From Candidatus Marinacidobacterales bacterium (lineage in GTDB: Bacteria; Acidobacteriota; Vicinamibacteria; Marinacidobacterales; SMYC01): DNA of 64,000 bases. Positions 1 to 64,000 of this stretch are shown one piece after another; within the stretch, counting starts at the first letter, position 1; every line of letters starts with the position of its first letter. Both the position numbers and the translations under genes were made by a program. The DNA lies in NCBI GenBank assembly GCA_965237955.1, contig OZ250169.1, positions 7,968,001 to 8,032,000 on the forward strand, written 5' to 3'. The notes beneath the pieces were generated by a model. The model searched no databases, was not told the DNA's origin, and saw only the letters and a program-made list of their open reading frames with translations.

Positions 1-914
1 CCACGCTAGTTCTGTCATCCGGAACGAACCGGGAAACGAGACTCCTTCCCGACAGCGGAACAACGCCGCCCCATGTCGCTGAAAGGACATTCGGAAGTGA
101 GCGCACACGCTCGAGGACCTCGCGATAAAAGACCAACGCTCTCATCTTGTCGTATCGTGCCGACATCAAGTTGAAATCTACAGACAAAATCAGCACCTTG
201 GCCGTGCGAAATCCGTAGTCTACCCCGTACGCCTTTTCTAGCGTCCTACCGAAGAGACTGGCGCCGCTTAGTAAGCCCACGCACAGCGCTACTTGAGACA
301 TCAACAGAAGACTCTGGACCCGCGAACGGGAGGGGCCAGCACTGGAGCGAGGGCCGTCCCCATGGAGATTCGTTGTTAGGTAGCGTTGCGAGCCAACCAG
401 TACCGTGCCTAACCCAAATAACAGAGCGGTCACGAAGGTCAGCATAGAGGCAAACCCGATAACGCGGCGATCGAGCTGTAGTTCGAAATGCACTGGCATG
501 CCAGAGAGGTCGAAAGGCTGTTCCGCCCAAGAAAACAATGGGAGTATCTCCAAGAGGCCCATCACCCATGTAGCAATCGGAACGCTAATAAGCAAGCCTA
601 GAGCATAGAGAAACAGGCTCTCCGTGAACAACAGGCGAACGATTTTCGTCCGGCTGGACCCTAGGGCGTATCGGACGGTTAACTCCGTTTGTCTTCGGAG
701 GGTTCGAATGGACTGCAGGGTCGCAACATTTGAGCACGCGATGAACGATACCAGAAGAGCGATTCCGAAAAGGATCGCCCCGTAGGACATCACCGGTGCT
801 CTGTCGTCTGGCCGTAGGCGATCCTCCGACAACGGGCGCATTTGAATGCTCCACCCCTGATTCGTCTGCGGATATGCAAGTGCGAGCTGTTTTGCGTGCG
901 TTTCCACCGCAACT
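1..914 (-). pseudogene. Internal fragment of an ADOP-type (Acidobacterial duplicated orphan permease, MacB/FtsX-like) ABC permease, 5' end cut by IS, runs off window
   Basis: Manual minus-strand translation gives LLVSFIACSNVATLQ..ELTVRYALGSSRTKIVRLLFTESL..SQVALCVGLLSGASLFGRTL, typical ADOP motifs; absent from ORF track because it lacks a stop in the window. Confidence 0.75.
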
Positions 915-1999
915 GGCGTTGTTGCACGGCCCGGAGCAAATCGCTGACCTCCCTGTGCCGGTTGCAGAGTCACCCGGCGCAGTACGTATCGGGCATCCCG
1001 AGCGCAGCCATCTTGTTGAGTATCTCGCACCCAATTCGGTGTTCAACTCGTTGCCTCGCCAACGTTCGAGCCCGCATCTCCGGCCCGATGATCGCCTTGT
1101 AACGATAGACCGCGTTCTCCACCATGCTTCGCTTGGTGTAGCCTGAGAGCTTGTACCATTCACGTCGGCCGTGTCTTTCGATTGCACGAATATGGCGATC
1201 GCGCTCCTGCATGGCGGTGTTCGAATTCTGACTGAGCGTCGCGTTTCGTTGCGGCGGAATCACCACGCGCGTCCTTCGTCCAGGACTGTGCGCTTCGATG
1301 GCTTCGTAGACCGCTTCCTTGTCGTATGCACTGTCCGCCGCCACCGACACTAGAGGTGCTTGAATCTGTGTTAGCAAAGCGGGGACTCGGGTTGCGTCGC
1401 GAGCTCGTGACGCCGTCAGTTCGGACGCAACAATGTTCCCTGTCTCGCGATCAACGGCGATGTGCAACTTGCGCCATGCGCGCTGCTTTGGCGGTTTGCG
1501 AGCGTTTCCAACATGAATCCTCAAGCCCGTGCTATCGATCATCAGGTGGATGGGTTGAGTGCTCGCGGCTTTCGGAATCCGCAGCTTCTTGCGGAGCAAC
1601 CTCGAGCGCCGACACAACGTCGAGTAGTCCGGGATCTCGATACCGAGCCCGAGAAGCGAGGCGATCGAGTGCAAGAAGCCTTCGGTTTGTCGGTAGGCGA
1701 GCTTGTACACCATCCGGACAACCAGGCCCGTTTCAATCGCCATGTCTGAATAGACCCGTTGACCGCCAGGCTTACCGGTCTTGTCAGCCTTCCAGTTCGC
1801 GATTGCCTCCTCGTCAAACCAGACTGTCAAATCGCCCCGGCGGCGCAGCCCTTCGTTGTATTCCGCCCAGTTGCGAACGTGGTACTTCTTCTGCTTCGCG
1901 TGCTTGTACTGGCAGCGCTTGGGATACTTCATGCTCGAACATACCTCGGCCACCACCATAGGCGGATTTCGCTCTCAGCCAGAGCGGTGCAACAACGCC
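915..1999 (-). mobile_element. IS5-family IS903-group element 'A', copy 1 (1085 bp; transposase 970..1959)
   Basis: Terminal IRs GGCGTTGTTGCAC/GTGCAACAACGCC; transposase motifs NWAEYNEGLRRRGDLTVW, IDSTG, WRKLH, D-AYD; no TSD. Confidence 0.95.
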
Positions 2000-2316
2000 G
2001 CCCAATGGCCGAACTGATGGCCGCCATAGCAGGTCGCGTGCGGGTCCATTCCGTCCAACACCCGATTCCCCGAAAAAACATGGATGAAGTCCTCTGAACG
2101 GCACGTCTCGGGCGAGAGCCCGAGCTCTTCGGCGACTTCCGAGGCGAAAGCGACCAGCTCCGGAGCACGGACTTTGGCGGGCCAAACACGGGAAAAGCAC
2201 GCGCCCAAGACTTGGCGCGGTCGATTCGTCTCGTCGGGATCGGCCGGGAGCTCCCGGGTGAAACGGTTGTCGAAAACGAGCTCGTCCAGAGCCGTCGATT
2301 CCAAAAGGGAGCGCAT
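2000..2316 (-). pseudogene. selO: 5' fragment of protein adenylyltransferase SelO/YdiU, cut by IS
   Basis: FDNRFTRELPAD..YGGHQFGHWA motif, ending exactly at the IS IR. Confidence 0.85.
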
Positions 2317-2356
2317 CCAACATGCTAGCACGCGCCGAATCGCCCGCCGCATCGTC

Positions 2357-2906
2357 GGTGCTTCCGCCATTAAGCGTTGCTACGCGGCTAGAGGTATTCG
2401 TGCAACCGGAGGACGGATCGACGTGGCTGAGCTGCCGAGCCTCGTCTGAGAACCAAACGGTGATGTCGCCACGGCTCCTGAGGCCACGCTCGTACTCCCG
2501 CCAGTTGGTCACGCGATATTCGTCTTGTATTTGCGGTTCACTCGGCTGGACTTGCGCGCGACCATGGGTTCATCTCCTCGATATTCAATGTATCGAGAAG
2601 CTGAGTCGAAGCGGTTACCGGAGTCAAGAGCGATTCGTGCACCAACGCCTCGAAGAGAACGTCTTTCCGCACCCGACGCACCGGTATCGCCGGCGTTTCC
2701 CGGACCTCGTTGTGTAGAAACCGTGGCGGATGATGCTTCCAGAACCCACTTTTCCCAGCAGCGGACATTCGGGGTTGAGACAGCTCAAATTCGTCACTTC
2801 GCATGGGCCTTGTCGACGAGAGAACTCGTTCTCTCGGATCTAGGCTCAAACTCTAGCACGCGAACGGGTTACCGCCTGGCCGCCAACAGTTCATGGCGGA
2901 AGCACC
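2357..2906 (-). mobile_element. Internally deleted IS1-family element
   Basis: IRs GGTGCTTCCGCCAT at both ends (IS1-like); InsA-type zinc ribbon remnant GSIIRHGFYTTRSGKRRRYRCVGCGKTFS at about 2650-2750. Confidence 0.65.
2430..2649 (-). mobile_element. Left-end remnant of a third IS903-group element nested in the IS1-like element
   Basis: IR GGCGTTGGTGCACG; N-terminus ..VTNWREYERGLRSRGDITVWFS; inner boundary approximate. Confidence 0.75.
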
Positions 2907-3346
2907 CTGATTTCGTGGGCGGACGCGTTTTGATGAGGCACAGCGTGACTACGGGTCCGTCCCGTTTAATAATAATGATGAGCCACAGGCAAGCCTGCCC
3001 TCAGAAAGGCGCTGATGTAGGATCGGCGGAAGTTTATGCTAGAGCGAACGACACCGAGCTTCGGGCAGGCGCAGAAACGCCCTCCAAAGCACGAACGCGA
3101 GAGCACGGCGGGGCCCGCGTGCGAGCAGGAAGCGAAAGACGCCTCTGACCTACGCTCGGCCTTGGTACAGTGGGAAGACGAAGGGGGCAGCTGGCTTCCT
3201 CTTACTGAACCGTGATCTCGGTCCGCCGAATTGGCGCGCCGGGCGTTGAGCTGGTGCGGTTCGGCGTTGGATTCGAGAAGCCGCGGTAACCGTTACTTGC
3301 GCGTTTGCGTCATGCCTGGCCGTTCGAGAGCCTCGTATCGGTTTAT

Positions 3347-3787
3347 CTATGGAGTTGAAGGGGACTGAGCGATGGAACTGTAGTCGCGGGAGTTCTTGAT
3401 GCGTGCGAGCGTCTCCAACAAGTTCCTTGTCGACTCGAATGGCCAGTCGTGGCCCTGCCCCATTTCGCGTGCCCGCGCCCCGAGAGCACCCATGAAGCGG
3501 TGGAACTTACGAACAGCTGACAGCGTGTCGAGTCCCGTGAATCGACATAGCCGCTCCTCGAAAAGGACGTCGATGGCATGGAGAAAGCGGATATCGTCTG
3601 GGAGGGAAAGGCTTGCGGGGTCGTTCAAGCGTTGTCGTTGGCCGACGGTGGGCGCATCTGTGCGCTCGCAGTTAATGAAGATCCGGACGACGTCACGACC
3701 CGGAGTTACGTTTCGGCGGGCCGCGTATCCAATAAATCCCAAGCGTTCTACCTCGCAGGACTCTCTACGACTACCCACGGCGCTCAA
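3347..3787 (-). CDS. Hypothetical protein
   Basis: 146-aa ORF with protein-like composition, no recognised motif; start uncertain. Confidence 0.3.
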   Translation of the reverse strand: MSAVGSRRESCEVERLGFIGYAARRNVTPGRDVVRIFINCERTDAPTVGQRQRLNDPASLSLPDDIRFLHAIDVLFEERLCRFTGLDTLSAVRKFHRFMGALGARAREMGQGHDWPFESTRNLLETLARIKNSRDYSSIAQSPSTP

Positions 3788-3844
3788 TTCGCCTTTTCAC
3801 GTTTCGGAATCCGCTCCGAGGCGCCTCAGGAAAACCTTCATTTC

Positions 3845-4106
3845 GGAGGTGCCCCCACCATAGTTGAAGGTTCGAGGTGGTGGCGGCTCCTGACACATGG
3901 TTTACCCGACTTTGGCGTGCTTGTCGAGCGCTTGATTCTCAGTGACCTCCGCTAACTTCGCTTCGAGGATCGGTAGCGATTGGTATCCAATGATACGACG
4001 GAAATTTTTCTCCGTGGCGAGCAGAGCCGAAGCGGCCCATCTCAGAACCATCTTGCCATTGCGCCAGCGGGTGACGCGACGGGTACGACCTCGCGCACCG
4101 CTGAAG
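3845..4106 (-). mobile_element. 3' fragment of the IS256-family element seen complete at 45798..47243
   Basis: Near-identical to reverse complement of 46981..47243; IR GGAGGTGCCCCCACCATAGTTGAAGGTT; cut by IS903-A. Confidence 0.9.
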
Positions 4107-5191
4107 GGCGTTGTTGCACGGCCCGGAGCAAATCGCTGACCTCCCTGTGCCGGTTGCAGAGTCACCCGGCGCAGTACGTATCGGGCATCCCGAGCGCAGC
4201 CATCTTGTTGAGTATCTCGCACCCAATTCGGTGTTCAACTCGTTGCCTCGCCAACGTTCGAGCCCGCATCTCCGGCCCGATGATCGCCTTGTAACGATAG
4301 ACCGCGTTCTCCACCATGCTTCGCTTGGTGTAGCCTGAGAGCTTGTACCATTCACGTCGGCCGTGTCTTTCGATTGCACGAATATGGCGATCGCGCTCCT
4401 GCATGGCGGTGTTCGAATTCTGACTGAGCGTCGCGTTTCGTTGCGGCGGAATCACCACGCGCGTCCTTCGTCCAGGACTGTGCGCTTCGATGGCTTCGTA
4501 GACCGCTTCCTTGTCGTATGCACTGTCCGCCGCCACCGACACTAGAGGTGCTTGAATCTGTGTTAGCAAAGCGGGGACTCGGGTTGCGTCGCGAGCTCGT
4601 GACGCCGTCAGTTCGGACGCAACAATGTTCCCTGTCTCGCGATCAACGGCGATGTGCAACTTGCGCCATGCGCGCTGCTTTGGCGGTTTGCGAGCGTTTC
4701 CAACATGAATCCTCAAGCCCGTGCTATCGATCATCAGGTGGATGGGTTGAGTGCTCGCGGCTTTCGGAATCCGCAGCTTCTTGCGGAGCAACCTCGAGCG
4801 CCGACACAACGTCGAGTAGTCCGGGATCTCGATACCGAGTCCGAGAAGCGAGGCGATCGGGTGCAAGAAGCCTTCGGTTTGTCGGTAGGCGAGCTTGTAC
4901 ACCATCCGGACAACCAGGCCCGTTTCAATCGCCATGTCTGAATAGACCCGTTGACCGCCAGGCTTACCGGTCTTGTCGGCCTTCCAGTTCGCGATTGCCT
5001 CCTCGTCAAACCAGACTGTCAAATCGCCCCGGCGGCGCAGCCCTTCGTTGTATTCCGCCCAGTTGCGAACGTGGTACTTCTTCTGCTTCGCGTGCTTGTA
5101 CTGGCAGCGCTTGGGATACTTCATGCTCGAACATACCTCGGCCACCACCATAGGCGGATTTCGCTCTCAGCCAGAGCGGTGCAACAACGCC
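4107..5191 (-). mobile_element. IS903-group element A, copy 2 (transposase 4162..5151)
   Basis: Same IRs and ORF as copy 1; no TSD. Confidence 0.95.
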
Positions 5192-5809
5192 GCACGGGCT
5201 TGAGGATTCATGTTGGAAACGCTCGCAAACCGCCAAAGCAGCGCGCATGGCGCAAGTTGCACATCGCCGTTGATCGCGAGACAGGGAACATTGTTGCGTC
5301 CGAACTGACGGCGTCACGAGCTCGCGACGCAACCCGAGTCCCCGCTTTGCTAACACAGATTCAAGCACCTCTAGTGTCGGTGGCGGCGGACAGTGCATAC
5401 GACAAGGAAGCGGTCTACGAAGCCATCGAAGCGCACAGTCCTGGACGAAGGACGCGCGTGGTGATTCCGCCGCAACGAAACGCGACGCTCAGTCAGAATT
5501 CGAACACCGCCATGCAGGAGCGCGATCGCCATATTCGTGCAATCGAAAGACACGGCCGACGTGAATGGTACAAGCTCTCAGGCTACACCAAGCGAAGCAT
5601 GGTGGAGAACGCGGTCTATCGTTACAAGGCGATCATCGGGCCGGAGATGCGGGCTCGAACGTTGGAGAGGCAACGAGTTGAACACCGAATTGGGTGCGAG
5701 ATACTCAACAAGATGGCTGCGCTCGGGATGCCCGATACGTACTGCGCCGGGTGACTCTGCAACCGGCACAGGGAGGTCAGCGATTTGCTCCGGGCCGTGC
5801 AACAACGCC
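5192..5809 (+). mobile_element. 3' half of IS903-group element A, abutting copy 2
   Basis: Starts mid-transposase (TGLRIHVGNAR) and ends at IR GTGCAACAACGCC. Confidence 0.9.
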
Positions 5810-6563
5810 GGCCGCGGGCGCAGTCGCGTTTCGGGTTCACCCTTTCCCCGATACCGACGCGCTCTTTCATCTCGTTCGCTTCAACGCAGCATTCGTCGCG
5901 GGAATCGGTTCTTTCGAGCTGTGCCGAACTCTCGTGGAACGTGGCCTCGATTCCTCGAAAAAAGAGGGCATTCGTCGGTGGGCCGTGCGTCTCGGGAGTC
6001 GTCCTCTCGCGTTCGCCGTTGTCGTCGTCGTGCTTCTCCCCGAGAGCGCGCCGTTCGTGTGGAGGCCCGCCATGTTCGACCCTCTCTACTACCCGAGCAC
6101 GTACGAATGGGACGAATCGGTGCGGCGTCTCGAGCGTTGGATGCTCGAACAGTCTGACCCGGATACGGTCGTCCTGACCGGAGACGAGACCGGGGAATGG
6201 ATCGCCGCGCTCACCGGCCGACGGGTCGTGACCGGAGTGCGTGTTCTGAGACGCGACGAAGCACGACAACACCGCAGGCGGTTACGCCAGTTGTTCTTGT
6301 CGAGCGAGCCTTCCGAAATGCGCTCGGCGCTCGATGCCCTCGGCGCGGATATTCTCGTGCTCGATCCGGAGCTTCGTGAAGTGTATTGGGAGCTCGACGA
6401 GAGGCTGTTAGAATCAAGCGGTTTGGTCATAAGAGCCCATCAGATCGGTGATCGCTACACGATCTACGTGCGTCGCGTCACCTCGGCTCGAGCCGAGGGT
6501 GATGCATCGATCCACCGCCCACGGTATCAAGACGACGATGGGCTGGCCGGGAACCGGCGTCGC
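5810..6563 (+). pseudogene. 3' fragment of a membrane protein, probably from a glycosylation locus
   Basis: Hydrophobic segment followed by a soluble domain (WIAALTGRRVV..LGADILVLDP); bounded by element ends. Confidence 0.45.
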
Positions 6564-6674
6564 GGTACTTTCGAGTGAACGAACGATTTCGGTCACTCCC
6601 CGATGACCTCCGCCCACGCGCCTCGACGTTCTGATCTTAGCTTCATCTCGCCAACACTTAATGGCGGAAGCACC
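6564..6674. repeat. Fused element ends: GGTACTTTCGAGTGAAC end (also at 50201 and 59623) plus IS1-like right end
   Basis: 6564-6620 matches reverse complement of about 50145-50201; TTAATGGCGGAAGCACC at 6658-6674 matches 2357. Confidence 0.75.
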
Positions 6675-6716
6675 CACTGCGCAATCTATGACTTCGTACC
6701 CGAAACGACCCCCTGA

Positions 6717-7178
6717 TCACAAGGCCTGGCGATACGTGAAGTTCACCGCGGATTCAGGTGCCTTCTTCAGGGCAGCGAGGTACAGCTCCAGGTCCACGGT
6801 GAGCAGAGGCGTTTCGGCGGAGACGACTTCCAGGATCGCAGCGTCGGTCAGTCCAAGTTGGCTGAACGCACTGTTGTGAGAGGCATCCACGCTAGCGACG
6901 ATAATCTCTTGACTGTTCTCAATCAGGCTCCGGAGTACGTTGAAGAACAGGGAACGTTCAGGGTCGTTGTGGTAGGCGAGCAGGTTGGACGCTTCGGTAA
7001 GCGTGTTCGGCGTAACGAACAGTAATTTGTCTCCTATCTCAACCTCGACCAGACGGTCGTAATCGTCCACGGAGAAGCGCTTCAGCCGGCGGTGTTTGTT
7101 AATCAAGTGTCGACTTGTCATGCCCACGACGAGCAGAACGAGCAGGTTCGCGTCGATAACCCATCCAGTCTGGCGCAT
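6717..7178 (-). CDS. PIN-domain protein
   Basis: N-terminal VIDANLL, central LTEASN, C-terminal LGLTDAAIL..LLTVD acidic PIN motifs. Confidence 0.8.
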   Translation of the reverse strand: MRQTGWVIDANLLVLLVVGMTSRHLINKHRRLKRFSVDDYDRLVEVEIGDKLLFVTPNTLTEASNLLAYHNDPERSLFFNVLRSLIENSQEIIVASVDASHNSAFSQLGLTDAAILEVVSAETPLLTVDLELYLAALKKAPESAVNFTYRQAL

Positions 7179-7182
7179 AGGC

Positions 7183-7482
7183 TCAGTCCAGTGAGCGATG
7201 CTTTACTGACTTGACACTACCGTCGCTGTTATTGACATTAACGATCTTGTAGACACGGCGTGCTGTAACCCCGCCAAGGGATGCCGCCATGGACTGAAGT
7301 ACATTCGGTGCAGACCATTTCCGAGTGAAACCAATCGTTATTTTCCAGACGTCCGAGCTGTTATCGAACTCGACCTCTTCAAGCATAGCGTCACTGATCG
7401 GTTCTTCGGCAAAGAGATCGCGAACATATTCCTTGGCGATCCGCGCGGCTTGCTTCACGTCCATTTTTACCAGCCCTTCCAT
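7183..7482 (-). CDS. Small hypothetical protein upstream of the PIN gene (possible partner/antitoxin)
   Basis: 4-nt gap to PIN gene; MDVKQAARIAKEYVRDLF..LEEVEFD. Confidence 0.6.
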   Translation of the reverse strand: MEGLVKMDVKQAARIAKEYVRDLFAEEPISDAMLEEVEFDNSSDVWKITIGFTRKWSAPNVLQSMAASLGGVTARRVYKIVNVNNSDGSVKSVKHRSLD

Positions 7483-7552
7483 TCGTACACGTTACAATGT
7501 TATCTGAATCCTGACGTCCTGTAAACGGTACCTCCCCGGCCGTGTGCACCCT

Positions 7553-7646
7553 TGTGGTCCGCAAAAAGTCTATCCAGTGTTGATTGCGCGTTTTAGACCT
7601 GACATGGTCGGCTGCTTCTGGCCTGTTTTCTTTTTTGCGGATCACA
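7553..7646 (+). mobile_element. 94-bp MITE of the TGT..ACA (IS481-like) family with 5-bp TSD ACCCT
   Basis: Ends TGTGGTCCGCAAAAA / TTTTTGCGGATCACA; ACCCT at 7548-7552 and 7647-7651. Confidence 0.85.
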
Positions 7647-7745
7647 ACCCTTTCGGCGAAGTGGAGGAGCGACGTTCTTTTTCCACGACTTCAGGGACGC
7701 ATCCGCGGGACGGTTGGCCAGCCCCTCGACCGGTTTGCCTGAAAC

Positions 7746-7875
7746 CTAAAGACACGCGCTCTTGAGGATGCGGATGTAGCCGGTCTTGCCGGCGGCGTTG
7801 TCACCGTAGACCACGGTGAGATTTGGCCCGAACTTAAGAGACTGGCTTTCCGCAAGGGCATTCACGTCCCGGTGA
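7746..7875 (-). pseudogene. Short fragment of an SMC/AAA-type ATPase
   Basis: LTVVYGDNAAGKTGYIRILK Walker A; cut by IS. Confidence 0.6.
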
Positions 7876-8960
7876 GGCGTTGTTGCACCGCTCTGGCTGA
7901 GAGCAAAATGCGCCTCTTGTGGTGGCCGAGGTATGTTCGACCATGAAGTATCCCAAGCGCAGCCAGTACAAGCACGCGAAGCAGAAGAAGTACCACGTTC
8001 GCAACTGAGCGGAATACAACGAAGGGCTGCGCCGCCGAGGCGATTTGACGGTCTGGTTTGACGAGGAGGCAATCGCGAACTGGATGGCCGACAAGACCGG
8101 TAAGCCTGGCGGTCAACGGGTCTATTCAGACATGGCTATTGAAACGGGCCTAGTTGTCCGGATGGTGTACAAGCTCGCCTACCGACAAACCGAAGGCTTC
8201 TTGCACTCGATCGCCTCGCTGCTCGGGCTCGGTATCGAGATCCCGGACTACTCGACGTTGTGTCGGCGCTCGAGGTTGCTCCGCAAGAAGCTGCGGATTC
8301 CGAAAGCCGCGAGCACTCAACCCATCCACCTGATGATCGATAGCACGGGCTTGAGGATTCATGTTGGAACCGCCCGCAAACCGCCAAAGCAGCGCGCATG
8401 GCGCAAGTTGCACATCGCCGTTGATCGCGAGACCGGCAACATTGTTGCGTCCGAACTGACGGCGTCACGAGCTCGCGACGCAACCCGAGTCCCCGCTTTG
8501 CTAACACAGATTCAAGCACCTCTAGTGTCGGTGGCGGCGGACAGTGCATTCGACAAGGAAGCGGTCTACGAAGCGATCGAAGCGCACAGCCCTGGACGAA
8601 GGACGCGCGTGGTGATTCCGCCGCAACGAAACGCGACGCTCAATCAGAATTCGAACACCGCCATGCAGGAGCGCGACCGCCATATTCGTGCCATCGAAAG
8701 ACACGGCCGACGTGAATGGTACAAGCTCTCAGGCTGCACCAAGCGAAGCATGGTGGAGAACGCGGTCTATCGTTACAAAGCGATCATCGGGCCCGAGATG
8801 CGGACACGAACGTTGGCGAGGCAACGAGTTGAACACCGAATTGGGTGCGAGATACTCAACAAGATGACCGCGCTCGGGATGCCCGATACGTACTGCGCCG
8901 GGTGACTCTACGACCGGCACAGGGAGGTCAGCGATTTGCTCCGGGCCGTGCAACAACGCC
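7876..8960 (+). mobile_element. IS903-group element A, diverged and inactivated copy 3
   Basis: Same IRs and length; many SNPs; conserved Trp codon TGG changed to TGA near 8005. Confidence 0.93.
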
Positions 8961-10574
8961 GACGAGGTGCCGGAGCGGTGGAACTGGGTCTACCCAATCA
9001 TGATGACACGCAACAAGCATCTCTATGCCGCCTCTCAGCAACTTTGGAGGTCGCTCGATGAAGGGAAGACTTGGGACAAGATCAGCCCGGATCTGACGCG
9101 CGCCGATCAGGAGACGATGGGCCCTTCGGGGGGACCTATTGTTCTAGATCAGGACGGCCCGGAAATCTACGCGACCATTTTCGCCGTCGCTCCGTCGGAG
9201 GTGGACGCGGATACGATCTGGGTCGGCTCAGACGATGGTCTCGTTCACGTCAGCAACGGCGGGGCCGATTGGATCAACGTCACGCCACCTGACATGGCTG
9301 CCAACACGCGAGTCAGCCTGATCGAAGCCTCGCCGCACGACGCTGCAACCGCCTTTGTCGCGGCTAAGCGCAACCAGATGGGAGATCGGGCTCCTCACAT
9401 CTGGAAGACGCACGACTCCGGGAAGACCTGGAAGCGGATCGTCAATGGAATCCGAGCGGACGATTTTGTTCACGCCATTCGGGAAGACCCCCAACGAGCC
9501 GGACTGCTCTACGCCGGGACCGAACATGGCGTGTACGTTTCCTTCGACGAAGGGGATCTCTGGAAGTCGCTTTCCCTAAACTTGCCCGACGTTCAAGTAC
9601 CGGATCTCGTCGTGGAAGGCCGTGATCTCGTCATCGCAACGCATGGGCGTTCTTTTTATGTGTTGGATGACCTCTCACCCCTCAGGCAAATGGCCCCTGG
9701 CCAATCCACTCCTGCCGTTCACCTCTTCAAGCCGTCCGACGCCGTCCGTCGTGCCTATACCGCTAACATCGATTTCTATCTGGAATCCGTGACGGAACCC
9801 ATTCGTCTGGAGGTTCTCGACGGCAAAGGGGCTTTGGTGCGTGAGCTCCGTGTCAGAGGAGCCGACTCCAGAATTCAACCCTCGGCGGGACAGGGCAGTG
9901 GGAGACAACGTGGCGGAGGCTCGGGAGTGAAGGCCGGGCTCAATCGGTTACGTTGGGATCTCCGTTGTCCCGGCGCCACGGTCTTCGAAGGCATGATTCT
10001 CGAAAGCTCAAACCCAAGGAACGGTCCATGGGCCCCGCCGGGACGGTACGCGGTCAAGCTCACGGTGGGCAATCAAAGCTGGACCCAACCGCTCACCGTT
10101 CTCAAAGACCCGCGCCTTGGTCAGGTTACGCAGCAAGATCTGCAAGAGCAATTCACCCTGGCAATGAAAGTTCGAGACCGAGTCAGCGCCGCTAACGAGG
10201 CCGTTATCTTGATTAGGAAGTTGAAGACTCAGATGGATGACGATCGAATTACCGGTGAGCCGGAGCTCCAGAAGCCGCTCGCCGAGCTGAAGAACCGCTT
10301 GAGCCTCGTGGAAGCCGAGCTCTACCAGGTGAAGAATCAGAGTCCGAAGGACAAAATTGCCTTCCCGATCCGGCTCAACGACCGGCTTGCCGGGCTGTTT
10401 GCGCTCGTGCAGGAGGCGGACGGTGCTCCGAACCGGGCTCACTACGAGGTCTTTGAGCAACTTTCATCGGAGCTCGATGGGCACTTGGCCGAGTTGGACC
10501 AGCTCCTTGAAAACGACCTCGCGGCAGTCAACGAGCGGCTGTCTGAAAAACGTCTTCGTCTGGTCACAAAATAG
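8961..10574 (+). pseudogene. 3' part of a VPS10/BNR-repeat glycosyl hydrolase-like protein
   Basis: Asp-box repeats (SLDEGKTW, THDSGKTW, SFDEGDLW) and DLVIATHGRSFY; starts at IS end. Confidence 0.8.
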
Positions 10575-10662
10575 GTCCCGTCCGGCGGAATTCGGTACGC
10601 TTTCCCAGCACGTCGTTGAGCTTGGGTATACAATCGCCCCTACGCAAAGATGGGGGTTGGCG

Positions 10663-12732: not shown

Positions 12733-12895
12733 CGGTTTCTTCTCTTAGGTCACGATGTCGATTAGCCCCGCGCAGCATAGGAAACTGGGGTTGTTCAAGG
12801 TACCGATAACGTCTCCATGGATTCAGACTGCGAAAGCCTCAGGAAGAAGATGATTGGAAAGCCGTATTCTGGAAAACCGACGAAAGGAGGAAAGG

Positions 12896-12993
12896 ATGCT
12901 TAAGAAGCATAAGATCTTGTTGGCATTGGTACTTGTTGGGGGATTAACATTTGTTGGTTTTCTAACGAGCTGCAAGATTTCAGAAGTAGAACC
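12896..12993 (+). pseudogene. 5' stub of an exported (lipo)protein cut by IS
   Basis: AAGGAGG RBS, MLKKHKILLALVLVGGLTFVGFLTSC signal-like peptide ending at IR. Confidence 0.5.
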
Positions 12994-14078: not shown

Positions 14079-14140
14079 CAGCTGAGTTGCAGATCGAAAT
14101 GGCACGGCCACCGCGACCGTAGCAGCGCCGATCAAGGCGC

Positions 14141-17141: not shown

Positions 17142-17242
17142 TTCTCGACCTCAACACTGGTAAGCCAAGCGAAAGGGATTCCCGCGAACTGGGAAAGTGA
17201 TCGGATTGTGCGCTCGCGGGAGCGACTAGCGAGGTTGTCGCC

Positions 17243-48233: not shown

Positions 48234-48242
48234 TCGGCCAGA

Positions 48243-55173: not shown

Positions 55174-55400
55174 GGAACGGTGGCAACCGTTTCCGTGCCC
55201 ATCGGGATTCCGCTGGCGATGTGCCGTGCTAGAGGCCAAGTAATGATGAGAGCGAGCAGGAAGTAAACGACGAGCTCGAGAATACGAAACGCCGGCTCTG
55301 GAAGAACAGTCCCGGCAGGAGGCGCGCTGGTTCCGTCGTCACGGCCAGCTTTGACGCCTCTCGAGCGCGATTTCTCGGACGTCGTGCGGCGACGGCTCAA
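55174..55400 (-). pseudogene. 5' fragment of a membrane protein
   Basis: YFLLALIITWPLARH; overlaps the upstream stop and is cut by an element end. Confidence 0.55.
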
Positions 55401-58156
55401 TGTTCCTGCTGAGTTTGCTCGGGGGTTCGCGCAGTGCCCTCGTCGAGCTCATCAAGGTGCTCGCGCAAGGCACGAACCCTCTCCTCGTATCCTTGGATCA
55501 GCTCCTGGAGCTCGTCTCTGTTCTGCTCGAGCTCGCTCGCACCGCTGGTAGCATCTCCAGTGGCATAGAGGCGGTTGAACTCTTCCATCGCGCGGAACGC
55601 TCCACCACCATCGCCCGCATGATCGAGCACTCGGGCGACATGAAGGCTCAGGCCAGCTCGCACGTGGCCGAGCTCCATTGGTGACAGCTCGCGCAGGTAC
55701 GGGTCGTTTTCTGGCGGCGCGGCGATCCAAAGCTCGGCGAGAAGCTCGACGAGCTCCTTCCCAACGAGCCACGAAGTCTCGTTGGCCCGACCCCGCCGAT
55801 GCGTGACCGGGGCGTTGTACTCGATGAAAGGGCGATCATCCGTATTCACCGGGTAGGTTCGAAGAAGCCTTTCCGCCGCCATGAGGTTTCCCGAGTACTG
55901 CAGCAAAACGTCGCGGAATCCAAGGGGAGGGACCTCCGCGTCGGCATCGTCTCCGGAGTCGACGCGCTGCTCCCTGAGTGCGATGTTGCCAGATTCTGCC
56001 AATCGGCGCTCGATGGCGTCGCGGTCGAGCGGTGCCGCGTTCCGATGGCCTACGAGCGCGACCGTCTCCCAGCCGGGAGCGATGGTTCCGCGCCAAAGGG
56101 TCACCAGCGCAAAAACTTCACACATCGTGCGGGCGACCACGCCGAGCTCCTTCCGGGAGATTTGGTAGAGTGGAAGCCACTGCACATAGAGTCCTCCATC
56201 CTTCAGCCGGTCTCGCGCGACCTCGTAGTGCTCCAAGCTGTACAGGCTGCCTACGCCCGCCTTCCACGGCATGAACAGGTCGGCCACGATGACGTCGAAC
56301 CGCTCCGATGTCCCTAACAGATAGTTGCGGCCGTCCTCCGCCACCACACTAGCCCTCGGGTCCTCGAAAAGCCCGTGCACATAGGGCTCGAAATACGTGC
56401 GCGCCGCCTCGACGACGTCGGCCCCGAGCTCGCTAACCACGACACGCTCGACTGGATGTACGAGGGCGGCCCCTGCAGTAATGCCCGTCCCCATACCGAG
56501 AAAGAAAATGGAATCGGGTTGGGGGTGGAGGAGCAAGGGAAGATGTGTCTGCCCCTCCTCGAATGCCGAAGCACCCGTACCTCCCAGGGAGTAGTCGTTG
56601 TCCATCTTGATGGTGAGCGATGCGGGCTGCCGGATCACAGAGACGATGCCCGAGCTGCCTTCCCAGACCTCGAGAATGCTCTCTCCCTTCTCGAGCGGAT
56701 CGACCTTCACGATCGGCAGCCGCGAAGGATCGAGAAAGGACACGAGAAGCAAGAGACCACCGAGAGGAATGGCCCGGACGAGCTTTTTATTGATCTCCAC
56801 CTTGTGTGCCACGAGAAGGGCCGCGCAAAAGTAAGCAGCCGCCACGAGTCGGATGCTGGCCCAGAGACCAAAAAGATCCAAGAGGACGAAGCCGGCCACG
56901 AGCGATCCAACGACGGCGCCTACCGTGTTGATCGCCGTGAGGTCGCCCACCGTTCGTCCGGCGCCTGTCGAGAGGGGCTCGGCCAAGTGCAACAGGTAGG
57001 GAAAGAGGGTTCCGAGAAGAATGCCGGGTATCAGCATCACGGAAGCGGCACACCAGAACGAGCCGATCATGTAGCCACCAAAGCTCAACCCTCCCCCGAA
57101 ATACTCCAGCCCGTTCGTCATCCAGTTGAAAACGAAGGGCGTCGTGGCGACGAGAAGCGCGGAGGCGGTCAGGATAGCGAAGAGTAGAAAGATCGGCTCG
57201 CGACCTTTTCGAATGAGCCAGCTCGCCAAGGCCGCTCCGATCGCGAGGGCGAGGAGGAAGGTCACCAGGATCGTCGAGAAGGTGTATACCGAGTTCTGGA
57301 GCACCTGGGCGAACATCCGTGTCCAGAGCACTTCGAGGCTCAAGGCGGCAAACCCGGAAAAGAACGCCAGCGCACGAATGCCGTCTCGGGACAAATCCGA
57401 GACGATCTGTTCGGCGTCCCCCGCTTGCTCCGGTAGCGCGCTTTCGGCGGCGGCCGTTGTCGAGCTCAGAGCCCAAGCGACAACGGCGGCGGCGGCCGTC
57501 ACTGCCATGGCGACGAAATAGGATCTCGCGAAACCCAGCTCGCGGGGCAGAACGAAACCGGCCGCGAAAGCACCGAAAGCGGCACCCAAGGTGTTGACGG
57601 CATAGAGGACCGAAGCGATCCGGCCGAGGGTTTCCGGACTCCGGACGAGGTGCTGGCTCATCATGGGCAGCGTTCCGCCCATGAAAAAAGACGGCGGAAA
57701 CAGCACCATCATGGCCAGTAAGAACTTCACCGCCAAGAAGAGAGCCGGCCGGTCCCCCAAGGCCTGAAACAGCGGCGCATACACGGCGTGATACAGATCG
57801 AGTAAGAGAAAGTACGCAAGCGCGCTCAGGCTCACCCCGGCTTCCAGAAGCGCGTAGGCCGCGAGCGGTTTGCTCAGGCCACCGGCGCGCCTTCCCCAGA
57901 AGCGCGCTCCGGCAACGAGGCCGAGAAAGAACGCGGCCAAGGTGGTGGCCGCGGCATGGGACGTGTTGCCGAAGAGGAGTCCGAGCTCCTTCATCCAGAG
58001 GACTTCGTACACGAGACCCGCAAAACCGGAGGCGAAGAACAGGACGAGAGTGGATCCGACGTGGAAGCGCGCGAGCTCAACGGTCGGCGCCACTCGGGAC
58101 AAGCTCTCCATCTCGGCGTGCTCTTTCCCCATGGGACGTCCACCTTCGAGTTGCAT
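55397..58156 (-). CDS. Fused MFS-like membrane domain/spermidine synthase-like methyltransferase
   Basis: SGFAGLVYEVLW repeats, LGMGTGITAG, EDGRNYL, FDVIVAD, VQWLPLY; start may be 58132. Confidence 0.88.
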   Translation of the reverse strand: MQLEGGRPMGKEHAEMESLSRVAPTVELARFHVGSTLVLFFASGFAGLVYEVLWMKELGLLFGNTSHAAATTLAAFFLGLVAGARFWGRRAGGLSKPLAAYALLEAGVSLSALAYFLLLDLYHAVYAPLFQALGDRPALFLAVKFLLAMMVLFPPSFFMGGTLPMMSQHLVRSPETLGRIASVLYAVNTLGAAFGAFAAGFVLPRELGFARSYFVAMAVTAAAAVVAWALSSTTAAAESALPEQAGDAEQIVSDLSRDGIRALAFFSGFAALSLEVLWTRMFAQVLQNSVYTFSTILVTFLLALAIGAALASWLIRKGREPIFLLFAILTASALLVATTPFVFNWMTNGLEYFGGGLSFGGYMIGSFWCAASVMLIPGILLGTLFPYLLHLAEPLSTGAGRTVGDLTAINTVGAVVGSLVAGFVLLDLFGLWASIRLVAAAYFCAALLVAHKVEINKKLVRAIPLGGLLLLVSFLDPSRLPIVKVDPLEKGESILEVWEGSSGIVSVIRQPASLTIKMDNDYSLGGTGASAFEEGQTHLPLLLHPQPDSIFFLGMGTGITAGAALVHPVERVVVSELGADVVEAARTYFEPYVHGLFEDPRASVVAEDGRNYLLGTSERFDVIVADLFMPWKAGVGSLYSLEHYEVARDRLKDGGLYVQWLPLYQISRKELGVVARTMCEVFALVTLWRGTIAPGWETVALVGHRNAAPLDRDAIERRLAESGNIALREQRVDSGDDADAEVPPLGFRDVLLQYSGNLMAAERLLRTYPVNTDDRPFIEYNAPVTHRRGRANETSWLVGKELVELLAELWIAAPPENDPYLRELSPMELGHVRAGLSLHVARVLDHAGDGGGAFRAMEEFNRLYATGDATSGASELEQNRDELQELIQGYEERVRALREHLDELDEGTARTPEQTQQEH

Positions 58157-58195
58157 ATCAGATTCTTACGCTGATTCCTGTCATCATCTCGTCGA

Positions 58196-58769
58196 GTGGC
58201 CCGCGTGCAACCGCAGCAAGACGAAATCCGCCGGGTTAACGACTTCGACCGCCGGGAACCCGACAGGTCGGGCCACGTCTCCGGCCGCCGTAGCTACCTC
58301 AAAGCCGCTCTCCCCGTCGCGCTGGCGGGGTTGTTGCTGGGTGTCGCTTCCTATCTTTTCTTCGACCCTGCCCTTCTCGATTCCGCGCCCGATTTGCATC
58401 TCTCCCAGCTGGTGCAGGGCCTTCTGGCCTCGCTCGCCGTGGCCATTTTGGTCGTTTGGTACCACGGCGCTCGTCGTGATCCCACCTTCCCGCGGACGTC
58501 GGATGCCCTTTCTCTTCCCTTGCGCGGCGACCGTGTGCGCCGCCATGCGCAGTGGTTCGTGCAGATGAGGTGGGTCGCCGTAGCAGTGAGCCTCGCCCTC
58601 ATCTTCATCGCCGTCTTCCTTTCGGAGATTCTACCCTATGCGGCACTCCCCACTCTTCTCGCGTGGTGGGTCGCCCTGATAGGGACGAACGTCTGGTTCG
58701 CCCGACGGCTGCGATGGGCTCAAGATCTGGAAAAGGAGATCGTGCTCCAAGCCTCGGTGGATCTAGTTC
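58196..58769 (+). pseudogene. 5' membrane part of a probable sensor kinase
   Basis: TM helices, WFVQMRWVAV, LQASVDL; then fused to unrelated DNA. Confidence 0.45.
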
Positions 58770-59124
58770 ACGGGCTCACCGCTTCTGTTGACACTTCTGT
58801 GCCTCGTGGTGCTCCAGGGTGGCGAGATCCCGAAACGCCGCGCCGACTTCTACCGGCAGTGTCTCGAAGTGCTCCTGAGCAAGTGGCGAAAACCCCTGGT
58901 CGACGTCGACGCGGCGGTCTCCATTCTTCGCCAGCTCGCCTACAAGCTTCACACGCGAGGAAAGACCGACGATCTCTCGAAGATGGAGTTCCTTTCCCTT
59001 GCGAAACGCCGCCTCGAGGAGCTGAAGCTGAAGCCAACGCCTCTAGAGCTTCTCACCTGGCTTCACCAGCAAGCCGGCGTGCTCCAGGAGTTCCGGACGA
59101 ACCGGTACGGCTTCTCGCATCTCG
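58770..59124 (+). pseudogene. Internal fragment of a NACHT/STAND NTPase
   Basis: SPLLLTLLC (GxP-like), RRADFY, YGFSHL winged-helix motif. Confidence 0.7.
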
Positions 59125-59482
59125 GACGACGCGGAGAGGGTTCATCCGTTCGTGCTCGTCGCCTTGGAGCTTGCGTGGCGGTTCGGGAACGCCTCTCAGG
59201 ATGGGTATCGTGAACAGAATCCACCAGATGGCGACGCTTAGAAACGCGTACCGGGATGCCTCGGCTCCGTCGGCGAACCCGAACTTGTCCGGCCAACTGA
59301 TCCACGCAAAATGCAGGGCGAGGAGTAGTCCGCCCCCGACGTAGCCTATTGCGTAGCCGGCGGTGGAAACGCGGTCGATCTCGTCGGGCTTGGCGACGTG
59401 CGGCAGGAGCGACTCGTAGAAGACGTTTCCGGAGGCGAACCCGATGTTCCCGATGATGAACGCGACCGATGCGAACAACCAT
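59125..59482 (-). pseudogene. Internal fragment of a UMF1-type MFS transporter
   Basis: [34 protein letters not shown]. Confidence 0.75.
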
Positions 59483-59622
59483 TGGCCCTCGGTCGCGAAG
59501 AAGAGCTACGGCGTGTCCGGTCTCTGGGTTGGGATGCTCGTGGGACCGTGCTTCGTGGGAGCGGTCCTGCTGCCGGTTTGGACCTGCCGTCTGAGAAGCT
59601 ACTCGAGCCCAGCGTAGGCGTC

Positions 59623-60503: not shown

Positions 60504-61887
60504 GGGTCTACGCGGGTTCGTGTGGGTTGAAAACGGCATTTCTGGGTAATGGCGGAAGGAATGCCGCCACGATCTTCAGCTTGAGATATCCCTCGTCACG
60601 ATAGCCGTAGGCGCGTCGTTGCAGAACACGGATTTTGTTGTTGACCCCTTCAACCAGTCCGAGACTGACTTTGTTCTCAGGATGACAGTAGGAGGCGATA
60701 CCATCCCAATGGGACTCAATCATTCCGGCGAACTTCTGGTAGGGATGCAGGCGCTGCCATTTGAGGCTGTCTTTCCAACGTGTGAAAAAGGCGCGAGCCC
60801 CGCGTTCGGTGCGGTAATCCCAGAGTTGCCCGAAGGCCTCCTTCAAAACATAGGCGGTGTTCAGGCGCCGGTTGGCCTGGAGCAACTTCTTGAGTGCGCG
60901 GCGACCGTCCAGGCTCAGGTTCTCCCGCCGGGAAAGCAACGTGTAACGCTGCCCCTTGATATACGACCGGTCCTCGCCGCTGAGGCGTTTGTACTCACGG
61001 CGCCGGACCTCATCGAGAGCCTTTGACAGGTGACGCATGATATGAAACTTGTCGAAGATGATCCGCGCATTGGGTGCGTTGTTAATCACCGAGTTCCGGA
61101 AGGGCTTCCACATATCCATGGCGGCCAGCTTGATACGGGCGCTTTTCTTCCCGCCCAGCGCCTTGAAGAACAAATCGATGTCGGTTTCTTTGCGACCCTC
61201 ACCGCCCACCCAGATGGGACGCGCCCGCTCCAGGTCGCTGACAATGACACGATAGTTATGTCCCTTGCGGATGGAGATCTCATCGATACCGATGGCCCGA
61301 GGCGCCGGCAGCCCCGCCCGCTCGACTTGCTCTTGCATGTAGAGCTTATCCAGGTCCTTCACCGTAGTGTGGTGCAGACGTTCCATCTCGGCCACCGCCT
61401 TGTTCGGCATATCCCGGCACAGCTTGCCCACATGCGTCGCAAAGCGCTGGGTGTAGCGCGGGTTGTTCGCCAGCCAGTCCAAGTGTTCTACATGCACACC
61501 ACCGCACCCACGACAGTTGACGCGCCAACGCTCGTATTCCAGATAGATCCGCCAGCCTGCCAACGACAGGTCGCGGACCCGGCACACTTGCTTGTCATAG
61601 CGCCCCCGGCACCGATGCCCACAGTACGAGCACACGGCTGTTTTTTTCGCCTCTTGAGCTGGATGACGCGGGCGTATCGGTCACCGAATACACCGTTCAA
61701 TCGGGCGCCAGCCACGAAACCTGGTAGCGCAAAAAGCGAGCGGATCGACTGGGGATTTTTCACTCGGTTAGCCTATCCGAAAAACGGATCACTTCTCAGC
61801 ACCTGATGAAGTGCTGAATACCTTTTCCACACAATGAGTTACACTATTTCTCCGTCAGCATTCGCCCACAGATTTCCGCGTAGACCC
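60504..61887 (-). mobile_element. ISL3-family element with 8-bp TSD AATGTTAT; transposase in two frames (A7 slippery site near 61645)
   Basis: IRs GGGTCTACGCGG; zinc finger, GIDE, MDMW, FDKFH, EGVNNKI, RRAYGYR. Confidence 0.93.
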
Positions 61888-61888
61888 A

Positions 61889-64000
61889 ATGTTATTTAAG
61901 GCAATTGCTCAAGGTGGACCACGACGCGCCTTGGTGGTGGTGCCGCTGGCCCTTTTACTGGCCTGCGGGGCGGCCTTCGCGCAGGAAATCACCGGACAAA
62001 TCTACGGCAAGGTCACGGATGTTCAAGGGCTCGGGGTACCGGGCGCTACGGTGACGGTCACGAGTCCGGATCACATCAAGGCGGAAGTTCGAACAACGTC
62101 GGAACTGGGTACCTACCGTGTTCTGAGGCTACAGCCCTCGTCCAACTACACGGTGATGGTCGAGTTGACGGGATTCCAAACCGCTACCTATACAGAGATC
62201 ATCCTGCGGGCAGGGCAGGTCATTGCAATCGATGCGACGCTGTCCCCGTCCGGGGTGGAGGAGAGCGTGACCGTCGTTGGAACATCGCCGCTGGTCGACA
62301 TCAAGAGCTCGCAGGCGATGCGGACGCTCGAGCGGGAGCGGCTCGAGAACATCCCCCTGGGACGCGATTACGACGATCTCCTCACGTCGATGGCGGGCAT
62401 CATCGATACTGAGTATCAATTCGCTCCGGCACAATCGGTTCTCGGGAGCGACCCCCGGGGCAACCTGTACCTCATCGATGGAGCGGTCGCCAATGACACC
62501 ACGGTAGGCTACATTTTGACGGAAATCCCGATCGACATGATCGAGGAAGTCCAGGTAACGACCACGGGTCAAACGGCGGAGTTTGGCATGTCCCATGGCG
62601 GGGTTTTCAACTTCGTGACCAAGTCAGGAGGAAACGACCTCTCCGGTTCAGCGTACATGTTCTACAAAGGCGATAGCTTGGAGTGGGACAACCTCACGGC
62701 TGAGGAAGTGGAACAAGCTGGGGGGGTCGGAACGAGTGTGATCAAGGACCAGGACATAGGCGGAACTTTCGGGGGACCGATCAAGAAAGATGCTGTCTGG
62801 TTCTTCGGCAATCTCCGTCGGCTGAACCACTCGCTGCAACAACCCATCATCCCCACCCAGCCATTCGAGACCAATCAGACTCATTCGTTCTTCAAGATCA
62901 CGGCTCAGCTGGCCTCGGCCACCCGGTTATACGGCTCAATCACAACTCGGAATCAAGATAGGTATCCGTCCAACGTTACCAGTTTCAGAAACGCCGACGA
63001 CCCGTTGACCTGGCAGACCCAAAGGCGGAACCAGTATCTCTTCGGTTTCGGTCTGACGCACCTAATCGGCACCGATACCATTGTGGACGCAAGGTACAAC
63101 CGGCAGTGGAAAGAGTTTGTTCACGATATTCCCAACAACCCTGACGCGATCATCGGCTATACGGACGGGGTGACCGGATTGGAATTCGGGGGGCTCACCG
63201 GGGACCTATACCATATGATTTGCCGGTGCACGTGGGGAACGGGCGCTAATGTCTCGCACTTCATGGAGAACGCGAGTGGCTCACACGAGTTCAAGGTTGG
63301 CGTCTCCGTGGATTTCCCTAACTCCGAGCGGACGTTTACTTTCCCCAATAATGTCGACACCCGACAACAGCTTTCGAACGGAGCGGCCTATCGTATAACC
63401 AAGGAGTGGTTACCGAACACTCAATCCACGGGCATTGACCGCTTTTCATTCTTTGTGCAGGACCAATGGACGATCGGAGATCGGCTCACCCTGAACGTGG
63501 GACTACGCCACGTAACCACGGAAGGCTGGCTCCCCACCCAGAGTCGGGGTGGCGGCCGCTGGTTCCCCGTGGCCACCTTCCAGGAGGTCCGCGACGTCAT
63601 CAACTTTAGCACCTGGGCGCCGCGCCTTGGCATGGTGTACGCGCTGGGTGAGCAAAAAAGGACCTCTATCAAGGCCTACTACGGGCGACAGTTCAAGGCC
63701 CTCCTCACCCAGGATATGAGTTCCGTCGGACCCTCTTCAGGAGGAAGGGAGACCTACGAATGGAACGACTTCAATGGTGACCTCACATTCCAGGCGGGTG
63801 AGGAGGGGGACCTTCTCTCGAGTACCTTGAACCCCGTTATTAGAGATCGTTCGGACCTCGCCGACCCCGACATGACAGATTCCTACGTGGATTCGTTTCA
63901 CTTCACCGTCGAGCACGAGGTGAGTAGCAACATGGTGGCCTCGGTGCAAGCAACCATTAAGAGGGAGCGTAACCTCCTCGAGACGATTGTTATTCGGAGC
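61889..64000 (+). CDS. TonB-dependent receptor with carboxypeptidase-regulatory N-domain (Oar-like), runs off window
   Basis: MLFKAIAQ signal peptide, ITGQIYGKVTD, FNFVTKSGGN, FVQDQWTIGDRLTLNVGLR, WAPRLG. Confidence 0.88.
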   Translation, partial: MLFKAIAQGGPRRALVVVPLALLLACGAAFAQEITGQIYGKVTDVQGLGVPGATVTVTSPDHIKAEVRTTSELGTYRVLRLQPSSNYTVMVELTGFQTATYTEIILRAGQVIAIDATLSPSGVEESVTVVGTSPLVDIKSSQAMRTLERERLENIPLGRDYDDLLTSMAGIIDTEYQFAPAQSVLGSDPRGNLYLIDGAVANDTTVGYILTEIPIDMIEEVQVTTTGQTAEFGMSHGGVFNFVTKSGGNDLSGSAYMFYKGDSLEWDNLTAEEVEQAGGVGTSVIKDQDIGGTFGGPIKKDAVWFFGNLRRLNHSLQQPIIPTQPFETNQTHSFFKITAQLASATRLYGSITTRNQDRYPSNVTSFRNADDPLTWQTQRRNQYLFGFGLTHLIGTDTIVDARYNRQWKEFVHDIPNNPDAIIGYTDGVTGLEFGGLTGDLYHMICRCTWGTGANVSHFMENASGSHEFKVGVSVDFPNSERTFTFPNNVDTRQQLSNGAAYRITKEWLPNTQSTGIDRFSFFVQDQWTIGDRLTLNVGLRHVTTEGWLPTQSRGGGRWFPVATFQEVRDVINFSTWAPRLGMVYALGEQKRTSIKAYYGRQFKALLTQDMSSVGPSSGGRETYEWNDFNGDLTFQAGEEGDLLSSTLNPVIRDRSDLADPDMTDSYVDSFHFTVEHEVSSNMVASVQATIKRERNLLETIVIRS

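Follow-up and report, generated by a model that had tools for sequence, protein, structure and literature searches.

IS903-group elements that lack in-place target-site duplications in a mosaic zone of copied and shared DNA on a marine acidobacterial chromosome

Results and Discussion

How do pieces of about 35 unrelated loci come to lie side by side on a bacterial chromosome, with insertion sequences (IS) between them? The question is raised by a 64-kb stretch (the window) of a Candidatus Marinacidobacterales bacterium whose genome (G000) is assembled as one contig (C1) of 8.13 Mb (60% GC, 98% complete, 6.2% contamination), the window being C1:7,968,001-8,032,000. The best named matches of a window protein and of an ADOP permease point to Acidobacteriota as the phylum. 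A preliminary description had proposed either repeated deletion in a decaying region or a sink that keeps taking in IS-bounded pieces of own or foreign DNA; its deletion branch and its copy or import branch are each partly true and act together. Judging from the comparisons below, the explanation that we consider probable is that transferred and duplicated DNA fills repeat-rich zones of this chromosome, and that replicative elements of the IS903 group (A and B), which lack a target-site duplication (TSD), hop locally and so invert and trim this DNA.

Two IS903-group elements without in-place duplications

Element A is 1085 bp long and encodes an IS5 transposase of 329 amino acids, to which the transposase of element B (1087 bp) is 48% identical. 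Both proteins match the IS5 model NF033579 (266 and 238 bits for A and B, cut-off 140) and are 33-34% identical to annotated IS903B, and the ends of A and B (GGCGTTGTTGCAC and TGCCTTGGTGCAC) have short terminal inverted repeats similar to those of the IS903 type (GGCTTTGTTGAAT). Transposase type, size and terminal inverted repeats all fit, and we assign both elements to the IS903 group of the IS5 family. No IS6-type transposase was found in them, the profile matches being to IS5 models only and the target being 9 bp and not 8 bp. The window contains six full and two partial copies of A and one copy of B (Table 1).

An exact 9-bp TSD flanks none of the 125 full A/B copies that were found in G000 by their ends, the best case being one with two mismatches. 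Other repeat lengths and shifted ends were tried and rejected (0/125 at 7-12 bp, at most 1/125 at 5-6 bp), and a miniature inverted-repeat transposable element (MITE) with B ends has an exact 9-bp TSD in 0 of 11 genomic copies. The same was seen outside this genome: in A copies of G018, G015, G012 and G009 (0/57; 60 loci taken, three of which did not have both ends), and in A/B relatives of 11 further genomes of the phylum (0/22; 25 loci), of marine contigs (0/7; 57 loci) and of two plasmids from the cultured alphaproteobacteria Rhizobium and Skermanella (0/6 distinct copies from 18 loci; these are older, 84-100% alike). Taken together, an in-place TSD is present in 0 of 217 copies, 125 in G000 and 92 related ones elsewhere. 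Viral contigs held no relative of the A transposase.

As a control, canonical IS903B-like copies from five enterobacterial plasmids, chosen for their many copies, were treated in the same survey (26 loci, minus three partial and three duplicates), and 11 of 20 distinct copies had a TSD. Within the assembly itself, nine other families keep theirs (40/52, 25/33, 17/18, 14/20, 9/10, 11/13, 7/7, 5/5 and 5/6; some family names are inferred from ends and open reading frames). In the window, all seven TSDs named by the preliminary description are present: 8 bp for ISL3 and for the IS256 at 45798, TA for IS630 and three MITEs, and 5 bp for a TGT MITE. Since equally abundant families keep their TSDs, recombination between IS copies, to which the TSD-less junctions had been attributed, is not the main cause of the missing ones.

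The same controls bear on the quality of the assembly, as a metagenomic assembler could have swapped flanks across identical IS copies of co-occurring species. Copies of element A hardly differ between genera and reach great depth in the sequencing runs, the contamination lies on a single contig, and the junctions at 14078 and 17841 are unbridged in four contig sets. Yet TSDs are retained by longer repeats that are just as identical, inside zones as well (IS256 4/4 and ISL3 4/5 in Z1, the zone around the window), and short-read contigs and cultured isolates show the same lack. Moreover, the split pairs described below make clean inversions, the segments shared with other genomes carry many substitutions relative to the donors, the TolC gene of G018 has an insertion absent from G000, and a contig of run X15 covers 5782-6590, with 28 bases of IS end plus flank (below the 31-base bar). 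We consider an assembly artefact highly improbable.

A 9-bp target signature with split partners

Although never found in place, the target has left its mark. Self-complementarity of the flank profile peaks at length 9 (r 0.95 for B and 0.64 for A; at most 0.38 at other lengths), and A/B flanks outscore random DNA on held-out profiles. Separated 9-bp partners were recovered as seven pairs among 207 distinct B ends (shuffle mean 0.74, maximum 4) and two pairs among 110 A ends (shuffle mean 0.09). The palindromic profile and the split pairs together indicate that the transposase does cut a 9-bp target. In all seven B pairs a left end is matched with a right end, and five have the geometry of intramolecular inversions, spanning 6.6, 9.5, 247, 279 and 355 kb; of the remaining two, one is in direct order around 265 kb and the other is 2.8 Mb apart. 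When partner pairs were rejoined in a script, six of nine gave a continuous frame or a match to an intact copy. As an example, dprA is split by the 355-kb inversion between inverted B copies with a split 9-bp target (C1:2,800,988 and 3,155,879); its two parts, on opposite strands, cover profile positions 3-156 (at 3.156 Mb) and 147-211 (at 2.801 Mb). The gene split by the 279-kb B inversion in the core (C1:1,284,227 and 1,562,828) encodes a metallopeptidase, which from its motif we take to be M1-like. More than 90% of A/B ends have no surviving partner, and we infer later adjacent deletions at these. In the window, the junction of the truncated A copy at 5192 recurs at C1:7,818,530, and the 9-bp partner of the latter is at 7,821,297.

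The preliminary description had most segments cut at element ends with the missing halves not on the other side. This holds for the 16 IS903-type ends of the window, for which the matching flank is never across the element; 11 of them interrupt reading frames (eight host genes, three transposases), three are intergenic and two unassigned. It does not hold for several joins made without any element, seen by alignment to donors at 58765/58767, 59126 and 59505 and read from the sequence at ~26306 and 45640. A composite transposon of the Tn903 type was also considered, and no partner pair, that is, no TSD outside two bounding copies, was found around any window segment.

The events would be as follows. 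Source DNA, copied from own genes or shared with other genera, would collect in the 1.6-Mb accessory zone. By replicative transposition within the chromosome, A and B would never come to lie between their own 9-bp target copies, and each event would either delete the DNA up to a nearby target, with loss of the partner flank, or invert it and add a copy. Repeated local rounds would trim and reshuffle the segments until unrelated pieces abut, with IS481-like elements, IS6 elements and a few element-free joins contributing further junctions. Repeated deletion, as first proposed, is upheld by the nested series of junctions and the lost partner flanks.

Several observations weigh against this explanation. 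IS903-type ends account for only 16 junction sides in the window and for 40 of the 472 low-copy duplicate segments of Z1. No continuity was seen in three of the nine rejoined pairs, and both A pairs join like ends (left-left and right-right), an outcome beyond one replicative step, so that they need more than one. In a quick tree, which included two wrong-frame rows, the TSD-less elements do not form one supported clade. No listed contig of four runs bridges 14078 or 17841 (14035-17885 compared), and one holds the cassette between these positions IS-free. Finally, the TSDs of ordinary simple insertions could be erased if adjacent deletion followed very often; the finding of none in place versus nine split pairs argues against this.

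Origin of the segments

Copies of at least 93% identity were found for 23.7 of the 37.2 kb of low-copy DNA in the window, 16.5 kb matching another genus and 9.3 kb matching elsewhere in G000; 13.4 kb have no close copy in the sequences compared. Orthologous core DNA is 68-74% identical to that of other genera, and the segments are far closer: 99.4% end to end for 8961-12993, 98.3% for 34691-36013, 96% for 5810-6558 and 94% for 55174-58765 (all G013), 99.7% for the copper cassette at 14079-17840 (G018), and 97/93% for 23076-26306 and 100% for 47996-48474 (both G008). The sharing is near letter-for-letter and points to transfer between genera, to which we assign no direction. The copper-type cassette also occurs in G005, G009, G015 and G018 at 88-99.7%, in differing surroundings. 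For segment 41861-45796 the only matches were to an IS200 piece or at 65-76%, and 50202-52339 had no match at the cut-off used.

The relatives are IS-free at the five breaks checked (5810, 8961, 12993, 14079 and 17840), as are contigs of other runs across the breaks, and thus the cut state is derived in G000. In turn, the zones sampled in G013 and G008 proved to be mosaics too, built from pieces of 0.3-6 kb that match sites all over G000. Collinearity of window neighbours in the donors was looked for and rejected: 160 kb of G013:C1 has three window pieces among ~40 that are scattered over G000 and do not follow window order, and for G018, no other window segment lies within 55 kb of the cassette.

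Other pieces are copies of the genome's own DNA. The selO gene, whose 5' piece is in the window, is whole at C1:3.649 Mb, and the segment with the piece is an inverted duplicate (99.4-99.8%) of C1:7,953,851-7,956,065, the twin junctions retaining 262 versus 185 bp of an IS256 in a nested series. The core mutM-metC locus at C1:2.18 Mb is collinear with four relatives, and its three copies (7.928 Mb, 7.947 Mb and window) are nested and 98.9-99.5% alike, two having a common right junction; metC is whole only in the core, and 7.928 Mb is the one place with mutM in frame. In the core mutM (C1:2,183,2xx), a run of G carries a +1 frameshift, which may be genuine or a sequencing error; the copy in the zone (7,928,1xx) reads in frame and may now be the working one. 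The ADOP permease piece has a 97.5% copy at C1:343 kb, likewise cut by A but further out, and had no match in 18 family genomes; the TonB receptor gene behind ISL3 is duplicated at C1:360 kb. The view of the preliminary description that such housekeeping fragments are copies or imports was borne out in part, with selO and metC intact elsewhere, the mutM-metC pieces nested copies of one core locus, and segments near-identical to other genera.

That IS-bounded units are themselves the currency, whether as one-IS circles or as donor DNA recombining between shared IS copies, added serially with trimming secondary, is a rival which we consider unlikely. Element A, which is 99-100% identical in three genera, with such identity seen in G018 and G015, might act as homology carried from genome to genome; the copper cassette is complete and has direct A copies on both sides; whole junctions are duplicated (five groups for A, three for B); and IS26-type units are transferable between species by natural transformation (PMC3410848). 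However, adjoining IS903-type copies (within 15 kb) are direct in 19 cases and inverted in 20, while compound units of the IS6 type are always direct (PMC7986276). Two of the five IS-bounded segments of the window sit between inverted copies, the donors have no IS at the five breaks, and IS903-type ends bound few Z1 duplicates. The sink in its original form was accordingly not sustained.

For the probable explanation, in which shared and copied DNA is trimmed locally, the entry route of foreign DNA is a guess, namely uptake of free DNA, for which PMC3410848 offers a precedent. In G000 comEC (1.72 Mb) is intact, and VirB4 was found in none of 19 family genomes (one family model only), two observations that would also suit the sink. 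The split of dprA speaks against the sink, and transformation may have been weakened recently.

The window within its genome

Based on repeated 31-mers, G000 has a repeat-rich zone of ~1.6 Mb (Z1) that runs from ~7.78 Mb over the contig ends to 1.25 Mb, and smaller ones at 2.78-3.23 Mb and 3.55-3.76 Mb. The borders were set by eye from the 31-mer profile, so the comparisons of zones and core are descriptive, and the genome is assumed to be circular, the overlap of the contig ends being 9 bases only. High-copy DNA makes up 0.305 of the window, 0.307 of Z1 and 0.108 of the core (0.31-0.38 across zones, 16.7% of the whole genome), and low-copy duplicates 0.216, 0.219 and 0.041, respectively. When the 126 bins of 64 kb are ordered by high-copy fraction, the window comes 22nd; by the count of repeat runs it comes 11th, and with 16 IS903-type ends it shares the first place. 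What it offers is a typical sample of a megabase repeat-rich zone and not a 64-kb locus, and the special accumulation locus that had been suggested is not supported. All 116 A ends are inside zones, whereas 118 of 211 B ends are in the core.

The origin side of the chromosome is marked by dnaA at 2.35 Mb, and a dif-like site and the skew switch are at 5.98 Mb; Z1 is without GC skew, though inside a skewed replichore. The replichore arms of 3.63 and 4.51 Mb become ~3.0 and 2.9 Mb when the zones are subtracted, a near equality that fits gain better than loss. This matters for another alternative, ordinary symbiont decay, in which IS copies spread neutrally while deletions and RecA recombination between copies wear down the native genes where they stand. 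It would account for the many broken genes, including the frameshifted core mutM, and for the share of high-copy DNA, and recA is intact, which in turn ruled out its loss as a cause of the pattern. RecA recombination should have scrambled every large family, yet TSDs persist in most of them; the genome is of 8.1 Mb and 98% complete; and the fragments are extra copies or foreign. The preliminary description had named a similar IS density genome-wide with no intact copies as the sign of such decay; the density is zonal and intact copies exist. Decay as the sole cause is largely refuted, and we give it little credence.

In G000, G018 and G015, the listed copies of A form two blocks on either side of dnaA, with only the 40 best candidates per genome scored. 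With dnaA at 2.35, 9.09 and 1.95 Mb in the three genomes, the A-rich zones are roughly 0.4-2.7 Mb off on both sides in two genera, perhaps through hopping or inversion between mirror positions of both replichores. Of the public runs that share at least half of their words with 10000-19900 of the window, counted as the share of the words of that interval, two are labelled sponge metagenome and seven bear coded organism names, and from these labels we take the habitat to be sponges; runs from sediment, seawater and soil with shares under 0.3 carry no weight in this.

Comparison with known systems

IS26 is treated as an exception among insertion sequences: it never moves alone. In transposition assays, the hallmarks of its family are the formation of cointegrates only and a targeted conservative mode. 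Its reported products are the absence of an abutted TSD, inversions with a split TSD, and adjacent deletions (He et al. 2015, PMC4471558), and the mosaics described here share with it elements that are never in an abutted TSD, inverted copies with split target repeats, and unique flanks and partial genes remaining from deletion. There are differences too. A and B have transposases of the IS5 family (NF033579) and a 9-bp instead of an 8-bp target, lack the bias to direct arrays that translocatable units give IS26/IS6 (PMC7986276), and occupy megabases of the chromosome of an uncultured marine bacterium, with cargo other than resistance genes, unlike the resistance plasmids and islands of IS26.

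With IS903/IS903B and the IS903-group elements of Paracoccus, A and B share transposase group, size, end motif and 9-bp target (PMC3281130; PMC11708052). The trapped Paracoccus elements are listed with 9-bp repeats, and IS903B, 33% identical, has a TSD in 11/20 copies as opposed to none in the A/B branch. IS903 is known for adjacent deletions, thought to need a replicative path, in Ngan et al. 2024 (PMC11708052), where TSD-less IS5/IS903-type and IS481 copies occur at deletions and duplications, as here, where IS481-like elements are TSD-poor too. The authors propose insertion into existing breaks without target cleavage; unlike in that model, A/B flanks have the 9-bp target signature and split duplications. 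IS26 already exemplifies the process, and IS903 does so as a minor path; an IS903-group branch without in-place TSDs appears undescribed: we found no description in the literature, our search excluding ISfinder, which may list zero-repeat members.

IS expansion in host-associated bacteria (e.g., Amoebophilus) likewise gives many IS copies and pseudogenes; it differs in that G000 has a large genome, a zonal IS load and a net gain of cross-genus DNA. No account of such zones in sponge Acidobacteria was found in the literature. A study of sponges reports little transfer between symbiont species (PMC11410982), and against that view the zones show kilobases of near-identical DNA common to genera of likely sponge symbionts.

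If the replicative explanation is true, a second, unrelated and widespread branch has an IS26-like genomic signature, and A/B with IS903B would form a natural pair in which to study what shifts a DDE transposase away from simple and towards replicative transposition. A bolder version, which we put forward only tentatively, is that this widespread branch is an obligate replicative, IS26-like transposon which, with other shared IS in this family of sponge-associated bacteria, builds landing zones that feed themselves on either side of the origin of replication; through these, kilobase pieces of DNA would pass between genera without a conjugation system, as a chromosomal cross-genus gene pool hidden by fragmented metagenome-assembled genomes. 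There is a practical warning as well: marker genes that are duplicated or broken in complete genomes of this kind are not necessarily a sign of contamination.

Other features of the window

The mosaic of ~35 unrelated segments, counted by hand from our analyses, was confirmed; that they are mostly cut was overstated, as ~14 of some 33 host genes are whole by end-to-end alignment to full-length homologues or profiles. These encode the S9 peptidase, multicopper oxidase, TolC, heavy-metal-binding protein and a small neighbour, PD40/Omp85 (interrupted by a MITE only), SRAP, a class V aminotransferase, SLT-LysM, a PMT-like protein, GT2, a spermidine-synthase-like protein and the TonB receptor at 61889, with Mug/UDG nearly whole. 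For the genes previously labelled hsdR and NACHT, Pfam and NCBIfam matches were not found. Nor did the two small open reading frames at 6720-7491 match Pfam or NCBIfam; by eye we take them to resemble a PIN-type toxin-antitoxin pair. The Mug/UDG gene adjoins mutM in G005 and G006, is absent from the core locus of G000, and has copies at 40368-40964 of the window and at C1:1.038 Mb. The three-piece chimera at 58458-59616, joined without an element, is duplicated (99.6%) at C1:363,280-364,560, where the copy stops at an element-B end.

Table 1. Elements and gene segments of the window (strand as assigned; pyridoxal phosphate, PLP)
Position	Strand	Feature
1..914	-	ADOP permease, N-terminal part gone at A end
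915..1999	-	Element A, full, no TSD
2000..4106	.	selO 5' piece and remnants
4107..5191	-	Element A, full; interrupts an IS256 remnant (3845-4106) with its left end and a further A copy with its right end
5192..5809	+	Element A, truncated by neighbour
5810..7875	.	Membrane-protein C-terminal half, two small open reading frames, P-loop stub
7553		TGT MITE with 5-bp TSD
7876..8960	+	Element A, full, 97% variant, no TSD
8961..12993	+	VPS10-type protein half, whole S9 peptidase gene, first part of another gene
12994..14078	-	Element A, full, no TSD
14079..17840	-	Complete copper-type cassette (multicopper oxidase, TolC, heavy-metal-binding protein), direct A copies on both sides
17841..18925	-	Element A, full, no TSD
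18926..21409	+	mutM lacking its 5' part, Cys/Met PLP enzyme gene lacking its 3' part
19824..21006		IS630 with TA duplication, in Cys/Met PLP gene
21410..22494	+	Element A, full; junction common with copy at C1:7,948,119
22495..23075	-	Element A, truncated by neighbour
23076..26306	-	PD40/Omp85 gene, whole apart from IS630-type MITE
24922..25048		IS630-type MITE with TA, one of three in the window (each with TA)
28632..28745	.	Non-autonomous MITE with element-B ends; interrupts ArsC-like gene
31896..32700	+	IS6-family element (NF033587 match), no TSD
34691..36013	+	SLT-LysM gene, whole; terminates in half TGT MITE abutting 36007-36633 fragment
37855..41219	.	Cluster of IS481-like (rve_3) elements and TGT MITEs, second TSD-poor class, around Mug/UDG gene
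45798..47243	+	IS256 with 8-bp TSD, internal control
47996..48474	+	Gene pieces up to left end of TSD-less IS256
48475..49842		IS256, no TSD
53886..54972	+	Element B, no TSD
55174..59616	.	Whole spermidine-synthase-like gene, then three gene pieces joined without element (58765, 59126, 59505)
60504..61887	-	ISL3 with 8-bp TSD, internal control, in front of TonB receptor gene

Besides A and B, four element types are TSD-poor, the rve_3 element (1/22), the TGT MITE (1/23) and two others (10/34 and 6/16). The rve_3-type elements are a second junction-making family; their end motif CCCGTCCTGTGCCAAAA has more than 350 hits genome-wide, with window sites at 28280, 33706, 37865 and 39455. The IS630 in the Cys/Met PLP gene (window 19821-21010) sits in CTAG, where the core and 7.947-Mb copies have CGAG and the 7.928-Mb copy (C1:7,929,205) has CTAG, a stop; no simple tree accommodates the three copies, a hint of gene conversion or of a footprint left by excision.

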